A DNA stretch of 64,000 nt from Planctomycetota bacterium (GTDB taxonomy: Bacteria; Planctomycetota; PLA2; JAEUHO01), in assembly GCA_965222115.1 (NCBI GenBank), contig CBDCTJ010000007.1, positions 1,856,001-1,920,000 of the forward strand, in the 5' to 3' direction. The notes beneath the pieces were generated by a model, which was not told where the DNA came from, ran no database searches, and saw only the letters and a list, made by a program, of their open reading frames with translations. Below are positions 2,923 through 9,166 of the stretch, one piece after another. Positions within the stretch are counted from its first letter, which is position 1. Every line of letters starts with the position of its first letter. The position numbers and the translations under genes are program-made.

Positions 2923-3519
2923 CTAACGCGTGCGCCGCCAATAAAGACGAATCACCGCGCCGCGGGGTGCTGAGCTGCCGGGCTTTCGCGACTGGTGGTT
3001 AACGGTGGCAAGTACGCCCCGCGCAGGAACGCCGGTGGGAAACTGCGCGCTGAGGCCGCGGGCACGTAGCAGATTCTGCGCGACGTGGGGGGCCAGCCCA
3101 ATGAGATTGGGTACGACGACGCGCCGGGGCTGTTGCCTAGGCGGAGGTAGTTGGCGAGGCGGTTGAGCCCCGTGAGATGGTGGAATCACACGACGTGGAT
3201 TTTTGGGGGCCTGGACGTAGCGAAAGCTCAGCCGAATCTGGGCGCCCCGAACCATAAGCGTGCCGGCCGCTGGGTGTTGGCCGTGAACGTATCGCTGGCC
3301 GTGCCCCCGCGTCTTGCCCACCAATCGCGCGCGAAGGCCTACCCGGTGAAGCACTTGCGTGGCTTGGTGAACCGGTTGCCCTACCACGGACGGTACGCGC
3401 ACCTTTTTTCGGCGATTCTTTGCTTCTGCGGTCGCGCTTCCGAAAACACCGCTCGCGCAGAAAACAAGCGTGGCGATCAAGGTCACGAAAACCGACGTGC
3501 TACGGAAACGGCTGTTCAT
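2923..3519 (-). CDS. secreted protein with two PASTA domains
   Basis: Signal peptide; VPSVVGQP...Q.PAAG and VPNLIGL...Q.RKPG repeats. Confidence 0.8.
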   Translation of the reverse strand: MNSRFRSTSVFVTLIATLVFCASGVFGSATAEAKNRRKKVRVPSVVGQPVHQATQVLHRVGLRARLVGKTRGHGQRYVHGQHPAAGTLMVRGAQIRLSFRYVQAPKNPRRVIPPSHGAQPPRQLPPPRQQPRRVVVPNLIGLAPHVAQNLLRARGLSAQFPTGVPARGVLATVNHQSRKPGSSAPRGAVIRLYWRRTR

Positions 3520-3593
3520 GCGGCCATACTATCATCCTCTCAGCATCCGACTGCGCGTCGCAGTCGAGAGCGCTTTGAAGGGATTTCAGTGCC

Positions 3594-4523
3594 TTGACGC
3601 AAACGGATACCGCTTCATCATCGTCGCCTGAAAGCGGCAGGACGAGCACGTCGCGGAGTATAGGCCTGCTTGTTGTTCGCCTCGCTGGGCTGTGGATCTT
3701 CCTCGGCGGCGTAGCGAAATGGTTATTCGGCGCTCCCGGAGATCTTCCCCGCTTTCTGTGGGATCTGCCCATCGAGCGCGCCACGCTCTTTCCACTTGTG
3801 ATCTCATTTGAGATGGCGCTGGGACTCTTCGCGTTTCTTCGACCTACGCGCGGCTGGTTGCCGATCATTCCGGTGTACCTAGCATTTGTCGCTGTGCTTC
3901 TTACGCAGATTGCGTCGGGTGCCACGTCGTGTGGCTGTATTGGAAGTCAAATCCCGGTGCCGCCATGGCTGATGTTGTCCATTGACCTCGTTTGGCTCGG
4001 ATTGATTTTATTCGTTGCGCGGCCGTGGCGGTGGGGGCGACGCGCGCTTCGGCCACTGCCCCTATTGCTCCCGCTCGTTCTATTGGCGGCCGCATGTCCT
4101 TGGATCTATTCGCGCACCGCGAGCGCCGACGATCCATCCAAGGCGGGTATTGCGTGGGTGGAACCCTCGACGTGGAAAGGCAAGCGTTTCGAAGAGATTG
4201 ACATCTACAAGTGGTTCGACAAGCAAGACATTGAACCCACGGCACTGTACCTGCTCTATGTCGAGAGCTGCGAAGTGTGCGCCGAGCACTTGGATTTGCT
4301 CTACATGCGCGAGCAGGGCGAACGCACGGTGTACCTCATGAAAGTCTGGGAAAAAGATGCGTCCGAGGCCACGCGCAAGGTGCATAAACTACCTAGCGCG
4401 CCCTACATCGAGCCGCGTGAACTGCGCGAGGGCGTCCCCTTTTCTGTTACACCACCTGTCGAGATCGACGTGCGCGACGGCAAAGTCGTGCGGGTCATGG
4501 AGGCGGGGGAGGAGCTTCCATGA
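3594..4523 (+). CDS. MauE/DoxX-family redox membrane protein fused to a thioredoxin-like CxxC domain
   Basis: About 5 TM helices, SCGCIG motif, C-terminal ESCEVC...TPP; stop overlaps the next ATG (ATGA). Confidence 0.78.
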   Translation: MTQTDTASSSSPESGRTSTSRSIGLLVVRLAGLWIFLGGVAKWLFGAPGDLPRFLWDLPIERATLFPLVISFEMALGLFAFLRPTRGWLPIIPVYLAFVAVLLTQIASGATSCGCIGSQIPVPPWLMLSIDLVWLGLILFVARPWRWGRRALRPLPLLLPLVLLAAACPWIYSRTASADDPSKAGIAWVEPSTWKGKRFEEIDIYKWFDKQDIEPTALYLLYVESCEVCAEHLDLLYMREQGERTVYLMKVWEKDASEATRKVHKLPSAPYIEPRELREGVPFSVTPPVEIDVRDGKVVRVMEAGEELP

Positions 4524-5863
4524 AACGCATTTCCTCTCGATCTGTCGTATCCTCTCGATCAAAGTACGTCCCGATTGCAACACTTGCGGTCGTGGCGTTT
4601 GGACTCGCCTTGGCTCTTGCCAAAGAAGATCCCTCGACGAACAGAAAGAAGGGAGGAGCGGAAGCGAATCCCCTCGTGTGGCATGCCGATCTCTATGAAG
4701 CCCACGCGCTGGCGGCAAAGCACCAACAAGCGCTATTTGTCGTCTTTACTTGACAGCCCTGAAAGGACTGCAAGCAGTTTGCCGAGCAGTTTGTTCGGCC
4801 CACGCCCGAGGTCACGAAGCTTCTCTCCGATATGGTGTGCGTGCGCGTCACGAATATGCGCGGCGTCGATCTCTCGGTTTACCACTTCAACTATGATCTT
4901 ACATTCGTGTCGCTGGTCATGCGGGCTGACGGACACATCTACTGCACCTATGGCGACCGCAACGCGCATTCGCCCGATGCCCATTTGAGTATGGAGACAT
5001 TGGCGGCCGCGCTAAAGGCTGCGAAGGCCCTTCACGATGCTTCGCCGATCGCGGATCGAAGCAAGCCCCTCAAGAGGGATCCCAAGACGCACGTCGAGTC
5101 CTTGTCTTCATACGCTAAGACGTTCGCGCCGAAGAAGCGAAACGAATGTGTCCATTGCCACACAGTCAACGATCTTCAGCGGACCCACTTCGAGGCCAAG
5201 GGCACGTGGAAGCGCATTGACAACTTCAAGTGGCCCGATCTCGCCCAGCTTGGCCTCGAGATGAGCACGCGTGATTCACTGGAAGTCACGCGCGTATCTC
5301 CGAAGTCCATCGCATCGAGAGCAGGCGTGAAAATTGGCGACCGACTTGTGAAGGTTGGCGAGCGCGAGCCGCAGAGCTACGGCGATCTCAAGCGAGCCCT
5401 AGATGAGCTTCCGAAGCGTACGGGAACAGCCACCATCGCCGTCAATCGATCTGGGACAACGAAGACGCTCACGGCGAGACTCAACAAGAACTGGCGAATC
5501 CCCAATGCGGCGACCTTTGCGTGGCGCGGCATGAAGTGGCGCATGGTGCCGCAACCGGGATTTGGCGGTCGTCCTCTATCCGTGGTCCAAAAGCGGAAAC
5601 AGGGCATCGACACCAAGAACTTTGCCTTTCGCGTGGGCTACATCGTGAACTGGGGGCCGCGCGCACACGTAGGTCGAGCGGTTGCCGTTGCGGGGCTGCG
5701 AAAGCACGACGTGGTTGTCGCCGTGGACGGAAAGCAGGATTTCGGAAGCGTTTCCGAGTTCCACGCATGGGTGAGACTCAACAAGAAGGTGGGTGAGACG
5801 TTGCGTGTGGACGTACTGCGCAAGGGACAGCCAAAAACGTTTCGCATCCCCATGGTCAAGTAG
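4520..5863 (+). CDS. Trx7/PDZ (seleno)protein with two in-frame UGA codons (U78-Q-P-U81-K-D-C84), a CxxCH motif and two PDZ domains
   Basis: ORFs 4520..4753 and 4832..5863 are in the same frame and separated only by TGA 4751-4753 and TGA 4760-4762. Read-through gives signal peptide, W..DL..A.A.A...LFVVFT-UQPUKDC, CVHCH and PDZ repeats (447 aa). Confidence 0.85.
4765..4799 (+). promoter_or_regulatory. candidate bacterial SECIS hairpin(s)
   Basis: GGACUG-CAAG-CAGUUU (4765-4780), starting 11 nt after UGA1; GCCGAGCA-GUU-UGUUCGGC (4781-4799) with a G-first loop after UGA2. Confidence 0.5.
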
Positions 5864-5866
5864 CCG

Positions 5867-6889
5867 ATGTCAGAGGCATCGTCCCAGCCCCAACGTACGT
5901 GGCTTGCGCCGGGTCAAATCGAGACGCGAAAATTTCCGGTTACCGGCGAGTCTGCGCCATCGGTAGAGGCCCTTGACCTCGCTTCATGGCGCTTAGTCGT
6001 TGAGGGCGATGTCGAGAATCCCATCTCGTGGACCTACGACGCCCTGTTGGCGTTGCCGCAAGAGACGATCGTGTGCGACATTCATTGCGTTACGGGGTGG
6101 TCGCAGCGCGCCATGTCCTTTCAAGGCGTCCGGTTGTCGCGCGTGCTCGAACAATCTGTGCCTACGCCAGATGCTGCGTTTGTGCTGCTTCGCGCCTATT
6201 CCGATCGCGGGCACGCAACCTCGTTGCCGCTGTCACTTGCATTGGACGACACATGGCTCGTCCATTCGAAGGATGGGAAACCGCTTGCTGTCGAACACGG
6301 GTATCCGCTACGCACGCTTACGCCGTCTCGCTTTTTCTTCAAGAGCCTCAAGTGGGTCCATGAAGTGGTTCTGGCGTCAGACGACCAGCTCGGGTACTGG
6401 GAATCGGAGTTCGGTTACCACAACGATGCCGATCCGTGGCAAGAGCAACGCTTCGTTACCGGCGATGTCAATCGCAACAAGGCCGAAGCGTTCTTTCAAG
6501 CACGATCCCTTGATGCGTTTCGAGGCAAGACGCTGCTGGGCGTAACGTGCCACGCATGGACGCCGCGTTCAAAGGACTTGCGTGATATTCATCTTCGAGC
6601 CTGCGATCTACGCGGCGCCAATCTGCAGGGTGTCGATTTGCGGGGATCGAATCTCACGCGCTGTGACCTTCGAGGCGCCAATCTCACTGGGGCGGATCTT
6701 CGGGGCTGCGATATCGAAGGCGCCAACTTGGGAGGTGCAGTGTTGCGTGACTGCGATTTGCGCGGCGCATTGTTATACGCAGTTCAATTGGAACCGGGCG
6801 CCGACGTTGCCGGCGCCCGATGGGATAATTCAACGCAGTTGCTTGAAGGGGCGCGGCGTTACATGGAACGCCACGCACCACTTGATTGA
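5867..6889 (+). CDS. sulfite-oxidase-family molybdopterin oxidoreductase fused to pentapeptide repeats
   Basis: DIHCVTGWS, EHGYPLR, KSLKWV, GYWE motifs; C-terminal (D/N)LRG(A/S/C) pentapeptide repeats; no signal peptide. Confidence 0.88.
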   Translation: MSEASSQPQRTWLAPGQIETRKFPVTGESAPSVEALDLASWRLVVEGDVENPISWTYDALLALPQETIVCDIHCVTGWSQRAMSFQGVRLSRVLEQSVPTPDAAFVLLRAYSDRGHATSLPLSLALDDTWLVHSKDGKPLAVEHGYPLRTLTPSRFFFKSLKWVHEVVLASDDQLGYWESEFGYHNDADPWQEQRFVTGDVNRNKAEAFFQARSLDAFRGKTLLGVTCHAWTPRSKDLRDIHLRACDLRGANLQGVDLRGSNLTRCDLRGANLTGADLRGCDIEGANLGGAVLRDCDLRGALLYAVQLEPGADVAGARWDNSTQLLEGARRYMERHAPLD

Positions 6890-6927
6890 CGACTACCTTG
6901 CGTGACGACTACTTTTTTGATTGAAGA

Positions 6928-7557
6928 CTATGGCGTTGGATTCCGGAAGAACATGGCCGTCCAGTACACGTTGCCGCCACCCGCGTCACACACGCCAATG
7001 GTGCAGTGTGTCCATGCCGGGCTGGAACTTCCCGCCACCTGATTGGGGGCCACGATTTGGCGCAAGTGGCCATCGGAGGCCACCCAGCCGTTCATGATGC
7101 CCTGATCCGAGGTGTTGAGGCCCCATGCAACGTTCTCGCCCACAAACGGGTGGGCCGACGTCGTGCACGTGAATCCACCAGGGTCGTTGCTGATGCCCGC
7201 ATCAAACGCTCGCGTGCATGAGTCTTTGCCCGTGACGGGATCCACGTGAAAGATATTGCCTTCTGCGGCCTGACGACCGCTGTGCGCAAAGGCGACGTCC
7301 GCGGCCGGGGCATACCACTGCAACGCAGGTAGCGGAACTGCCAGGCCGGCTCGGTAGCTGTTGTGGAGCGCAAGCATATTTTGCGCGCGTTGAAGCTCGG
7401 CTGCTGACATGGACGTGCCCGCGTGATTGCCACCTCCACCACCGCCACCACCAACGATACCGTCGCTCCCGCCGCCACCACCACCACACGACGAGAGCAT
7501 GAGCGCCGCCGCTAACGATAGACACGCGGACACCAATTTGTTTGTCAAGACTTTCAC
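6928..7557 (-). CDS. CAP/SCP-domain lipoprotein
   Basis: Lipobox LSSC plus Gly linker; HNSYR, GENVAWG, WVASDGH, YWTAMF. Confidence 0.88.
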   Translation of the reverse strand: MKVLTNKLVSACLSLAAALMLSSCGGGGGGSDGIVGGGGGGGGNHAGTSMSAAELQRAQNMLALHNSYRAGLAVPLPALQWYAPAADVAFAHSGRQAAEGNIFHVDPVTGKDSCTRAFDAGISNDPGGFTCTTSAHPFVGENVAWGLNTSDQGIMNGWVASDGHLRQIVAPNQVAGSSSPAWTHCTIGVCDAGGGNVYWTAMFFRNPTP

Positions 7558-7778
7558 GGCGGCTACCTCCCGAACGGCTGGTACGGCATACCAGGCTGTT
7601 CAACGTTGTGTTTTCTCAGTCTTCAATCTACCTCGGACGACACATCCGGCAACCCTTGGGTATCGGTTCCAGTACGCAGGATCTATGAATCGCCCATTGC
7701 GAGAGGCGTCATACCCAATCGGCTTCGGACGATTCTCCCTCCATCGCGGTGTCGAGCCATTCGCGCTACCCTGACGCC

Positions 7779-8999
7779 ATGAGTGACTTCGATCCTGTCC
7801 GTTCTCTGGCCGATATGCGACACGAATTTGGGGAGCATGGCGGCGTCAATATGTCGATTGAAACCAGCACCACCTTCACGGTGATGGATTCCGACACGAT
7901 GCCGGAGATTTTCACCGGCTCGCGCGGACCCGACTTGGGCGGCTGCTATCTTTACGGACGCCACTTCAATCCGACCGTGTATGTCCTGGGGCGCCAAATC
8001 GCGGCACTTGAAGGGGCGGAAGCGGGTTATTGCACAGCCAGTGGCATGAGCGCCATCAGTGCGGCCGTACTGCACTATTGTTCGAGTGGCGATCACATTG
8101 TTTCGGGGACAACGATCTACGGCGGGACGTTTGCGCTCTTTCACGAGTACTTACCGGCAAAGACCGGCATTCGTGTTGACTTCGTCGACACATCCGATCT
8201 CGATGCGGTACGCGCGGCATGTACCGAGAAAACGCGCGTGCTGTACGTCGAATCGATGGCGAACCCCACGTTACGTGTGGCCGACATTCCTGCGCTCGCC
8301 GACATCGCTCACGAATGCGGTGCAGTGCTGATCGTGGACAACACGTTCTGTCCGCTCATCCTTTCGCCCATTCAGCTTGGCGCTGATGTTGTCGTACACA
8401 GCCTTACGAAGTTCATGAGTGGTGCATCGGATTACATTGCGGGCGCGATTTGCGGGACGTCGGAATTCGTCACAGGTCTCATGGACCTCCATATGGGCTC
8501 GCTCATGATGTTGGGGCCAACGATGGATCCACGTTCGGCCTACGAGATCAGTGTACGCTTGCCGCATCTTGCGCTTCGGATGAAAGAACACGCACGCCGC
8601 GCGTCGGTGTTTGCGAAACGGCTGGCCGATCGCGGATTGGACGTGACCTACCCGGGCCTGAGCACGCATGAAGACTATGCACTTTTGAGTCGCCAAATGA
8701 ACGACGGCTACGGGTATGGCGGGCTCATCTGTGTGGATCTACAAACAACGGATCGCGCGGGGCTCTTTATGGAGACGCTGCAGAATCGAGATCGATTCGG
8801 TCTGATGGCCGTAAGTCTCGGCTACTTCGAAACATTGATGTCGTGCTCCGCTTCATCGACGTCAAGCGAGATGAGTGAGGACGATCTCAAGCGCGCGGGC
8901 ATTCGCCCCGGCCTCGTGCGTCTTTCGATTGGCTACACCGGCACCCTCGAGCAGCGATGGGACCAGTTGGAACGGGCGCTATCGGATATGGGGCTCTAG
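7779..8999 (+). CDS. methionine gamma-lyase (Cys/Met metabolism PLP enzyme)
   Basis: YLYGRHFNPT, SGMSAI, VDNTF, HSLTKF (PLP lysine), AVSLG, GLVRLSIG. Confidence 0.85.
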   Translation: MSDFDPVRSLADMRHEFGEHGGVNMSIETSTTFTVMDSDTMPEIFTGSRGPDLGGCYLYGRHFNPTVYVLGRQIAALEGAEAGYCTASGMSAISAAVLHYCSSGDHIVSGTTIYGGTFALFHEYLPAKTGIRVDFVDTSDLDAVRAACTEKTRVLYVESMANPTLRVADIPALADIAHECGAVLIVDNTFCPLILSPIQLGADVVVHSLTKFMSGASDYIAGAICGTSEFVTGLMDLHMGSLMMLGPTMDPRSAYEISVRLPHLALRMKEHARRASVFAKRLADRGLDVTYPGLSTHEDYALLSRQMNDGYGYGGLICVDLQTTDRAGLFMETLQNRDRFGLMAVSLGYFETLMSCSASSTSSEMSEDDLKRAGIRPGLVRLSIGYTGTLEQRWDQLERALSDMGL

Positions 9000-9166
9000 T
9001 TCCTCCAAACCGCTCTCAGAGTCTGGGCTTACGTCCCAAAGCGTGAGATCTCGCGGCTTACGGTTACGAGGACTATTTTGGGGGGGCGCCTGGCGGTTGA
9101 GGGCGTCTTGGGATAGACTCCCTGTGTCGACAAGTCTGAAGTGCCCTCGATGAATGGGAGTCCCGT

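Follow-up and report, generated by a model that had tools for sequence, protein, structure and literature searches.

The Trx7/PDZ domain-containing (seleno)proteins (NCBIfam NF041199) form an already known family, while their form with two selenocysteine (Sec, U) residues, and the RNA signals of that form, have barely been described. The family made its first appearance in the Global Ocean Sampling (GOS) survey, under the selenoprotein name 'putative secreted serine protease MucD', with CxxU as its motif and represented by 2 Sec sequences and 12 Cys homologues (PMC2398784), and the entries in reviews of 2022 and 2026 give CxxU with one Sec (PMC13188914, PMC9312934), the 2022 review under the name 'PDZ domain-containing protein, pfam13899'. 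Motifs of the UxxU type are on record for the marine bacterial Prx-like 2 proteins in the same survey (PMC2398784) and, in a review table, for two other bacterial families (PMC13188914). For the UXXU forms of Group 4 [NiFeSe] hydrogenases the authors suggest, where they treat decoding, a single selenocysteine insertion sequence (SECIS) and leave the question of decoding open (PMC13582414, 2026). No paper on UxxU in the NF041199 family, or on an extra hairpin tied to a first UGA, was found in a search of main texts, with supplements and the NCBIfam model text lying outside that search. Here, we describe a gene at 4520..5863 of a 64,000-nucleotide stretch of a Planctomycetota genome (GCA_965222115.1, contig CBDCTJ010000007.1, positions 1,856,001 to 1,920,000; hereafter the window). 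Sequence comparison confirms this gene as a genuine, mis-split member of the known selenoprotein family in its two-Sec form.

An earlier note on this DNA had proposed that two open reading frames (ORFs) conceal one exported Trx7/PDZ protein, with two UGA codons at the CxxC positions of a thioredoxin fold, where homologues should carry Cys, and a third Cys at equal spacing; each of these proposals is borne out, that of export in so far as the protein looks exported. On the forward strand, which holds all features of the window given below, a single frame of 447 codons runs from the ATG at 4520 to the TAG at 5861-5863, its sole interruptions being two TGA codons, at 4751..4753 (codon 78, Sec78, position 1 of a CxxC-type motif) and 4760..4762 (codon 81, Sec81, position 2). 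The peptide across them reads ...ALFVVFT-U-QP-U-KD-C-KQFAEQF..., and Cys84 (TGC, 4769..4771, in or beside the loop of a small hairpin) follows at the same spacing. Read with table 11, the frame is split into an ORF of 77 aa (4520-4753) and one of 343 aa (4832-5863). A Shine-Dalgarno-like AGGAG (4510..4514) can be read 5 nt upstream of the ATG. The upstream gene ends in a TGA that shares bases with the ATG at 4520 (ATGA), and TGA is therefore an ordinary stop in this genome. Judged by eye, residues 1-34 (4520..4621) are a predicted Sec-type signal peptide with a K/R-rich start, an 18-residue hydrophobic stretch (VPIATLAVVAFGLALALA) and A-L-A before K35, followed by K-E-D, and residues 1-42 are disordered in the structure model (predicted local distance difference test, pLDDT, <50).

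Family membership is given by a score of 352.1 bits against the equivalog model NF041199 (cut-off 300), with residues 53-444 of the protein aligned to profile positions 2-389 of 390; in a genome-level search with the same model the gene scored 335.8 bits. Pfam, the alignment and the structure model agree on a Thioredoxin_7 domain that bears a C/U-x-x-C/U motif and precedes two PDZ domains. The thioredoxin-fold domain, which is DsbD-gamma/DsbH-like, takes up about residues 54-175 (4679..5044; Pfam 3.1e-08), and the Thioredoxin_7 match itself (residues 54-115) includes both TGAs, while the protein has no Pfam match to a peroxiredoxin-like domain (AhpC/TSA, SelP-N-like). PDZ domain 1 covers about residues 246-325 (5255..5494; PDZ_6, 1.8e-11) and PDZ domain 2 about residues 345-444 (5552..5851; PDZ_2, 2.3e-15, best stretch 389-443, and the model). 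A full-length AlphaFold2 model built on a 66-sequence alignment reached a pLDDT of 89 and a predicted template modelling score (pTM) of 0.84, and a separate model of residues 45-245 a pLDDT of 87.9. The best structural match of the N-terminal domain (residues 48-176) is 3f9u_B, an exported DsbD-like C-terminal domain (Z 13.6, root-mean-square deviation 2.4 over 119 residues), followed by a Thermus thioredoxin (Z 11.2), AGR3 (Z 10.1), DsbH (2ju5, Z 9.6) and DsbD-gamma (1vrs_D, Z 8.8). Sequence profile (2.5e-19) and Foldseek (1e-9) both liken the C-terminal half to the PDZ tandem of DegP/DegQ, and RseP is similar as well. All 54 database homologues retrieved are 318-381 aa long and cover 71-82% of the query, a sign that gene callers halt at the TGAs and begin the protein at the Met behind them, as in the window's 343-aa ORF; two of the 54 carry the name Trx7/PDZ domain-containing (seleno)protein.

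How common the two-Sec form is was assessed with the NF041199 model in 401 genomes of the same phylum, after a search of genome contigs with the single protein had given 40 pattern matches, none of them confirmed. Matches over the cut-off occurred in 118 genomes, and all 149 such matches listed were fetched and aligned; the family counts below rest on these rows. The two motif columns read UxxU in 73 of the 149 rows, CxxU in 44 and CxxC in 32, with no UxxC among the matches listed, so that the first column holds U in 73 and C in 76 rows and the second U in 117 and C in 32. Cys thus stands opposite both UGAs in 32 rows, and opposite the first in a further 44. Every TGA of the family rows falls in one of these two columns, all 73 two-TGA rows use both, and the counts agree with the '2 TGA / 1 TGA / none' labels of the genome search. 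Sec follows a nested pattern, in which it may occupy the second position by itself but the first solely together with the second. UxxU had been called rare in the earlier note, which fails within this family: no other state is as frequent in the phylum sample, even though the reviews list CxxU. The third Cys (the column of residue 84) is kept in 136 of 149 rows; of its 13 losses 9 are in UxxU rows, 4 in CxxU rows and none in the 32 CxxC rows. In these 13 of the 117 Sec-containing members, A, S, G, N or F stands in its place. A quickly computed maximum-likelihood tree that excluded the motif columns has the all-Cys forms in two clades and the UxxU and CxxU forms interleaved, requiring 21 changes on the best topology (149 rows); on a 111-row tree the starred branches alone force 12-13 state changes. 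UxxU and CxxU have switched at least about a dozen times. The rows nearest to the window gene, at about 40% identity each, are L066 (CxxU) and L067 (UxxU).

The earlier note had also pointed to two small hairpins downstream of the UGAs and had raised the idea of overlapping in-frame SECIS elements. Both hairpins exist on folding, at 4765-4780 (hairpin A) and 4781-4799 (hairpin B), but they are adjacent and non-overlapping, and only hairpin B fits the published model. According to the description of that model, the apical loop of a bacterial SECIS (bSECIS) has 3-9 nt with a G among its two leading nucleotides, usually followed by G or U, the spacing from UGA to loop is 16-37 nt and the energy is at most -7.5 kcal/mol (PMC13188914). 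Hairpin B, GCCGAGCA-GUU-UGUUCGGC, has an 8-bp stem and an energy of -11.6 kcal/mol and agrees with this model on all four points for both UGAs, from which it is spaced by 26 nt (UGA 2) and 35 nt (UGA 1). In RNA numbering, with the U of UGA 1 as position 1 and UGA 2 as 10-12, hairpin B lies at 31-49. Its family consensus is GACGGGCA-GGU-UGUCCGUC, and the window copy keeps the helix through paired changes. Across 55 UxxU sequences 90.2% of the cells pair, with both-side (compensatory) changes in 5 of 8 pairs; G39, U41 and G43 are invariant, and the apical loop contains G-U in each of the 94 Sec forms found within the first 111 rows. Over the 149 rows, the mean energy of positions 29-53 is -11.6 kcal/mol in UxxU, -10.4 in CxxU and -4.4 in CxxC, and hairpin B reaches -7.5 kcal/mol or lower in 68/73, 36/44 and 3/32 rows, respectively. 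Judged from alignment and folding, hairpin B is the SECIS of the family, present in Sec forms and missing from most Cys forms. The folding of the window stretch alone is unremarkable (z = -1.71, with 12 of 200 shuffles folding as well), and the hairpins carry weight because the homologues have them. Rfam at gathering thresholds returned nothing but a tRNA in the window, and it is not expected to hold a SECIS hairpin.

The earlier note had made the presence of the Sec machinery in the genome a check; selA, selB and selC were found over cut-off and intact, while selD is present but frameshifted in the assembly. The selA gene (480.7 bits) lies at the very start of contig C7 (C7:1-1329), its tail at the end of contig C1, and these contig ends therefore adjoin. 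The selB gene is full length (346.6 bits), and the tRNA-Sec gene scores 71.6 bits, with 99 nt and the anticodon UCA. The selD gene, over cut-off with 150.6 bits, lies at C1:654443-655201, within the last 1.2 kb of that contig, and is itself a selenoprotein gene with the Sec codon in GG-U-AAK, as in 18 same-family-level relatives showing '1 TGA'.

Our overall reading, to which we give a probability of roughly 0.55, is that the gene encodes an exported Trx7/PDZ thiol/selenol oxidoreductase with two Sec residues, with hairpin B as its SECIS and hairpin A assisting at UGA 1. The protein would be exported to the periplasm via its signal peptide. Its redox site would be a DsbD-gamma/DsbH-like thioredoxin fold in which CxxC is written U-Q-P-U, and a short helical linker with a CxHCH motif would join this domain to the DegP-like PDZ tandem, which probably holds client proteins or peptides, by unfolded or C-terminal segments of the clients. 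SelB and tRNA-Sec would read both UGAs as Sec, with hairpin B as the SelB-binding signal that two-Sec members have in common with the one-Sec CxxU members and that is in range of both UGAs. In the two-Sec members, the 18-nt spacer between UGA 2 and hairpin B would have evolved hairpin A, which may assist the decoding of UGA 1, for example by folding the spacer and bringing hairpin B nearer to a ribosome paused at UGA 1. The product would be a selenol/diselenide (or selenenylsulfide) redox couple. A broader proposal, which we hold tentatively and at somewhat less than even odds, is that the gain of the second Sec repeatedly came with the extra helix, as a helper or a second minimal SECIS, so that one SelB system decodes UGAs 9 nt apart and yields a periplasmic diselenide centre, to which the CxHCH motif could be wired as a heme or metal site.

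The part given here to hairpin A rests on the family. In the window (4765..4780) it is a weak helix of 6 bp including 2 G-U pairs, with the loop CAAG and -3.7 kcal/mol. The family helix lies at positions 13-29, typically AAGGACU-GCA-AGUCCUU, whose loop is the codon of Cys84, and the window copy is shifted. Other clades keep it with different letters and amino acids (GGCGACU/AGUCGUU, GCGUCCU/AGGGCGU, CAUGCCU/AGGCAUU, AAGGCUU/AAGCCUU). In the 55 UxxU sequences 74.0% of the cells are paired, compared with 26-55% in slid controls, and the covariation score is 0.308, which none of 500 shuffles reached (mean 0.203; slid controls <=0.162). The same columns in 39 CxxU sequences are 50.2% paired (slid controls 25-54%), with no excess covariation. 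An energy of -4.5 kcal/mol or lower is found in 61/73 UxxU, 12/44 CxxU and 6/32 CxxC rows, and the difference in energy between UxxU and CxxU has a Mann-Whitney p of 1.5e-9, uncorrected for relatedness. From these alignments we read hairpin A as a selected accessory of the two-Sec state, which may be a spacer-compacting helper or a second minimal SECIS, or may have no role.

Several observations weigh against our reading, most of them on the side of hairpin A. With relatedness controlled, the UxxU member has the stabler hairpin A in 9 out of 12 sister contrasts, which is not significant (p = 0.15 by sign test, 0.08 by Wilcoxon test), and in 9 of 11 on the 111-row tree (p = 0.065), and binary independent-pairs tests of hairpin A with UxxU gave a median p of 0.22. 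The window copy pairs at 4 of 7 positions in the family register, and its -3.7 kcal/mol comes close to the average of CxxU rows (-3.2). Of all rows, a CxxU one (L069, -12.4 kcal/mol) has the strongest hairpin A, and in most rows hairpin A fails the SECIS model: 6 of 51 loops contain G-U, and 21 of 73 copies reach -7.5 kcal/mol or lower. As to the genome, selD leaves the frame many times in the assembly, with many 1-2 nt indels, and the repair argument that answers this is partial; nor did the neighbouring genes give a conserved hint at a substrate (tblastn on 110 loci, Pfam on 50 loci). The selD frameshifts are probably indel errors at a contig end, which is partly shown: contigs from public runs of two samples of one study differ from the assembly by no or few substitutions and by many gaps of 1-2 nt, alike in both samples (12 listed and 40 more), and correcting the 3 listed indels within selD lifts the score against the SelD of a relative from 189 to 242 bits, with identity going from 50% to 58%. 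The gene adjoining selD is also split into overlapping ORFs, and the last ~3.5 kb of C1 looks poorly polished. Separately, L095, the UxxU sister of L069, has a weak hairpin A (-2.4 kcal/mol), and in this pair codon 78 may have switched recently.

A rival explanation is decoding by hairpin B alone, in which one SECIS serves both UGAs and hairpin A would be a chance fold in the window and a by-product in the family. The two distances of hairpin B to the UGAs both fall within the published 16-37 nt, the window copy of hairpin A is no stronger than that of one-Sec members, the sister contrasts are not significant, and a single downstream SECIS is what has been proposed, in the passages on their decoding, for the UXXU forms of Group 4 hydrogenases (PMC13582414). 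For the window gene taken by itself, a single-SECIS mechanism may suffice. We nevertheless think this explanation less likely than our main reading, as helix A shows paired changes across amino-acid contexts in UxxU and none above controls in CxxU, and the excess of stable hairpins in UxxU over CxxU rows would be left over.

A stronger role for hairpin A, as the SelB signal of UGA 1 with hairpin B reserved for UGA 2, is improbable. The geometry would allow it, since hairpin A starts 9 nt past UGA 1 and its loop stands 16 nt past, at the lower published limit, and G is at loop position 1 or 2 in 41 of 51 sequences by hand count; this G stems from the Cys84 codon and is not independent evidence. 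Set against this are the scarcity of the G-U loop and of energies at or below -7.5 kcal/mol noted above, and the hairpin A of the window, which fails the published model in both loop (CAAG) and energy.

That just one UGA is read as Sec, while a SECIS-dependent tRNA of the selC* or tRNA-ReC type places Cys at the other, has very little probability. Such tRNAs are reported, in the part of the source that deals with them, as enriched in genomes with UXXU hydrogenases (PMC13582414), whereas the 50 tRNAs that ARAGORN found in this genome include a single tRNA-Sec (99 nt, UCA) and a single tRNA-Cys (GCA), which is ordinary and 74 nt long. No tRNA-ReC-like gene was seen in the assembly, which is about 90% complete, and all the sub-threshold RF01852 hits that were compared fall on calls of ordinary tRNAs, such as those for Ser, Leu and Gly. 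An 87-nt 'tRNA-Ala(cgc)' called by ARAGORN at C7:756756-756842 was considered as an unusual tRNA and set aside, as it has a mismatched acceptor stem and is probably a false positive. Least credible of all is a broken gene, in which translation would stop at TGA 1 and a PDZ protein of 343 aa would start separately from the ATG at 4832 (Met105), or in which the TGAs would be assembly errors: gene callers do annotate the split and indel errors exist elsewhere in the assembly, but the same two TGA columns recur in 73 rows of many genera, the thioredoxin domain is conserved on both sides of the TGAs, a SECIS is present, the assembly errors observed are contig-end indels and not substitutions, and two public runs, possibly the assembly's own source, contain all 570 sampled 31-mers (1.00) of window positions 3500-9000.

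Between the thioredoxin and PDZ domains, the protein carries C210-V-H212-C213-H214 (5147..5161), which the alignment and the model place at the start of a helix (213-226). This CxHCH motif is kept in 148 of 149 family rows, the lone exception being CxECH. The earlier note had called it a heme-c motif, of which the CxxCH in an exported-looking protein stands, while a cytochrome family or fold match on the linker does not: no cytochrome Pfam family matched residues 174-248 or 46-248 at E <= 10, and the linker had no solved-structure match, the fold matches running through residues 4-135 of the separate model. No distal Met or His was found among the columns conserved at 90% or more. The genome contains heme-attachment genes of the CcsA/ResC type (PF01578, 88.5 bits) and ResB (PF05140, 33.8 bits) side by side on C7, and such ResB/CcsA-type genes permit heme c without being diagnostic of it. 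We put the chance that CxHCH binds covalent heme c at about one in three; a metal site is equally possible because of the conserved middle His, the missing cytochrome-domain match and the missing conserved distal ligand.

The immediate neighbours of the gene may form a local redox relay, and this is not a family trait. The upstream gene (3594..4523), whose TGA stop overlaps the ATG of the selenoprotein gene and makes the two translationally coupled, encodes a MauE-like membrane part with SCGC (the MauE match, at 22.2 bits, is under the cut-off of 27) and a C-terminal soluble part with SCEVC (CxxC); it may be a membrane-anchored thiol-disulfide relay that feeds the Trx7/PDZ protein. Four bases 3' of the selenoprotein gene lies a fusion of unusual architecture (5867-6889), a molybdopterin oxidoreductase domain of the MsrP/sulfite-oxidase type (3.9e-33) with pentapeptide repeats (1.9e-30). 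Neither the MauE-like nor the molybdopterin gene can be counted as a family partner, as they are not conserved beside other members: a tblastn search with 9 neighbours from the window, run on 110 family loci, yielded a single weak match, and a Pfam scan of 85 same-strand ORFs adjoining the family gene at 50 loci gave clade-specific neighbours only. In the clade L023-L042 the family gene is flanked by a PQQ_2/BamB-like beta-propeller gene on one side and by a PSCyt2/PSD1 (DUF1549/DUF1553) gene on the other, and in the clade of L034, L046, L050 and L052 a FAD_binding_3 monooxygenase-like gene lies upstream.

A gene that is annotated as two ORFs in the window and truncated in all 54 homologues retrieved points to a widespread planctomycete selenoprotein that is routinely cut short. 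The 73 UxxU, 44 CxxU and 32 CxxC forms constitute a natural experiment on why the second position is the first to change from Cys to Sec and on how bacteria decode two close UGAs, a question raised in 2026 for the UXXU hydrogenases. The covarying helix specific to UxxU gives a testable handle on two-UGA decoding, and would, if it proves true, be a concrete answer for bacterial UXXU proteins.

Compared with known systems, the gene is closest to its own family. The members described in the literature have the same Trx7 domain with two PDZ domains and Sec at the second motif position, whereas the window gene and 73 of 149 rows carry Sec at the first position as well. In the SECIS of E. coli fdhF a short stem bears a G-G-U or G-U loop, with C-G and A-U as the closing pairs, at 11 nt from UGA to stem. 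Hairpin B is alike in its apex (GCA-GGU-UGU), while its UGA-to-stem distance of 18 nt is longer than these 11 nt. With SelL and the Prx-like 2 proteins the window protein shares two Sec residues, two residues apart, at a thioredoxin-fold redox motif, with a diselenide as the expected oxidised state; a diselenide was reportedly shown for SelL by Shchedrina et al. in 2007. Those proteins are peroxiredoxin-like, without PDZ domains or CxHCH, and the window protein is not a member. Proteins of the DsbD-gamma, DsbH and 3f9u type share the fold only: they are Cys proteins, DsbD-gamma being fused to a membrane electron conduit, whereas here the thioredoxin domain is fused to PDZ domains instead. The PDZ tandems of DegP/DegQ and RseP are like the C-terminal half, with the protease domain replaced by a thioredoxin domain. 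For decoding, the nearest parallel is found in the Group 4 hydrogenases, which, as far as the account of their UXXU forms goes, also have UGA-N6-UGA, one conserved downstream SECIS and an intermingling of CXXU and UXXU forms on their tree, but in which the residues are metal ligands of a cytoplasmic enzyme, UXXC forms exist and no extra hairpin is reported (PMC13582414).

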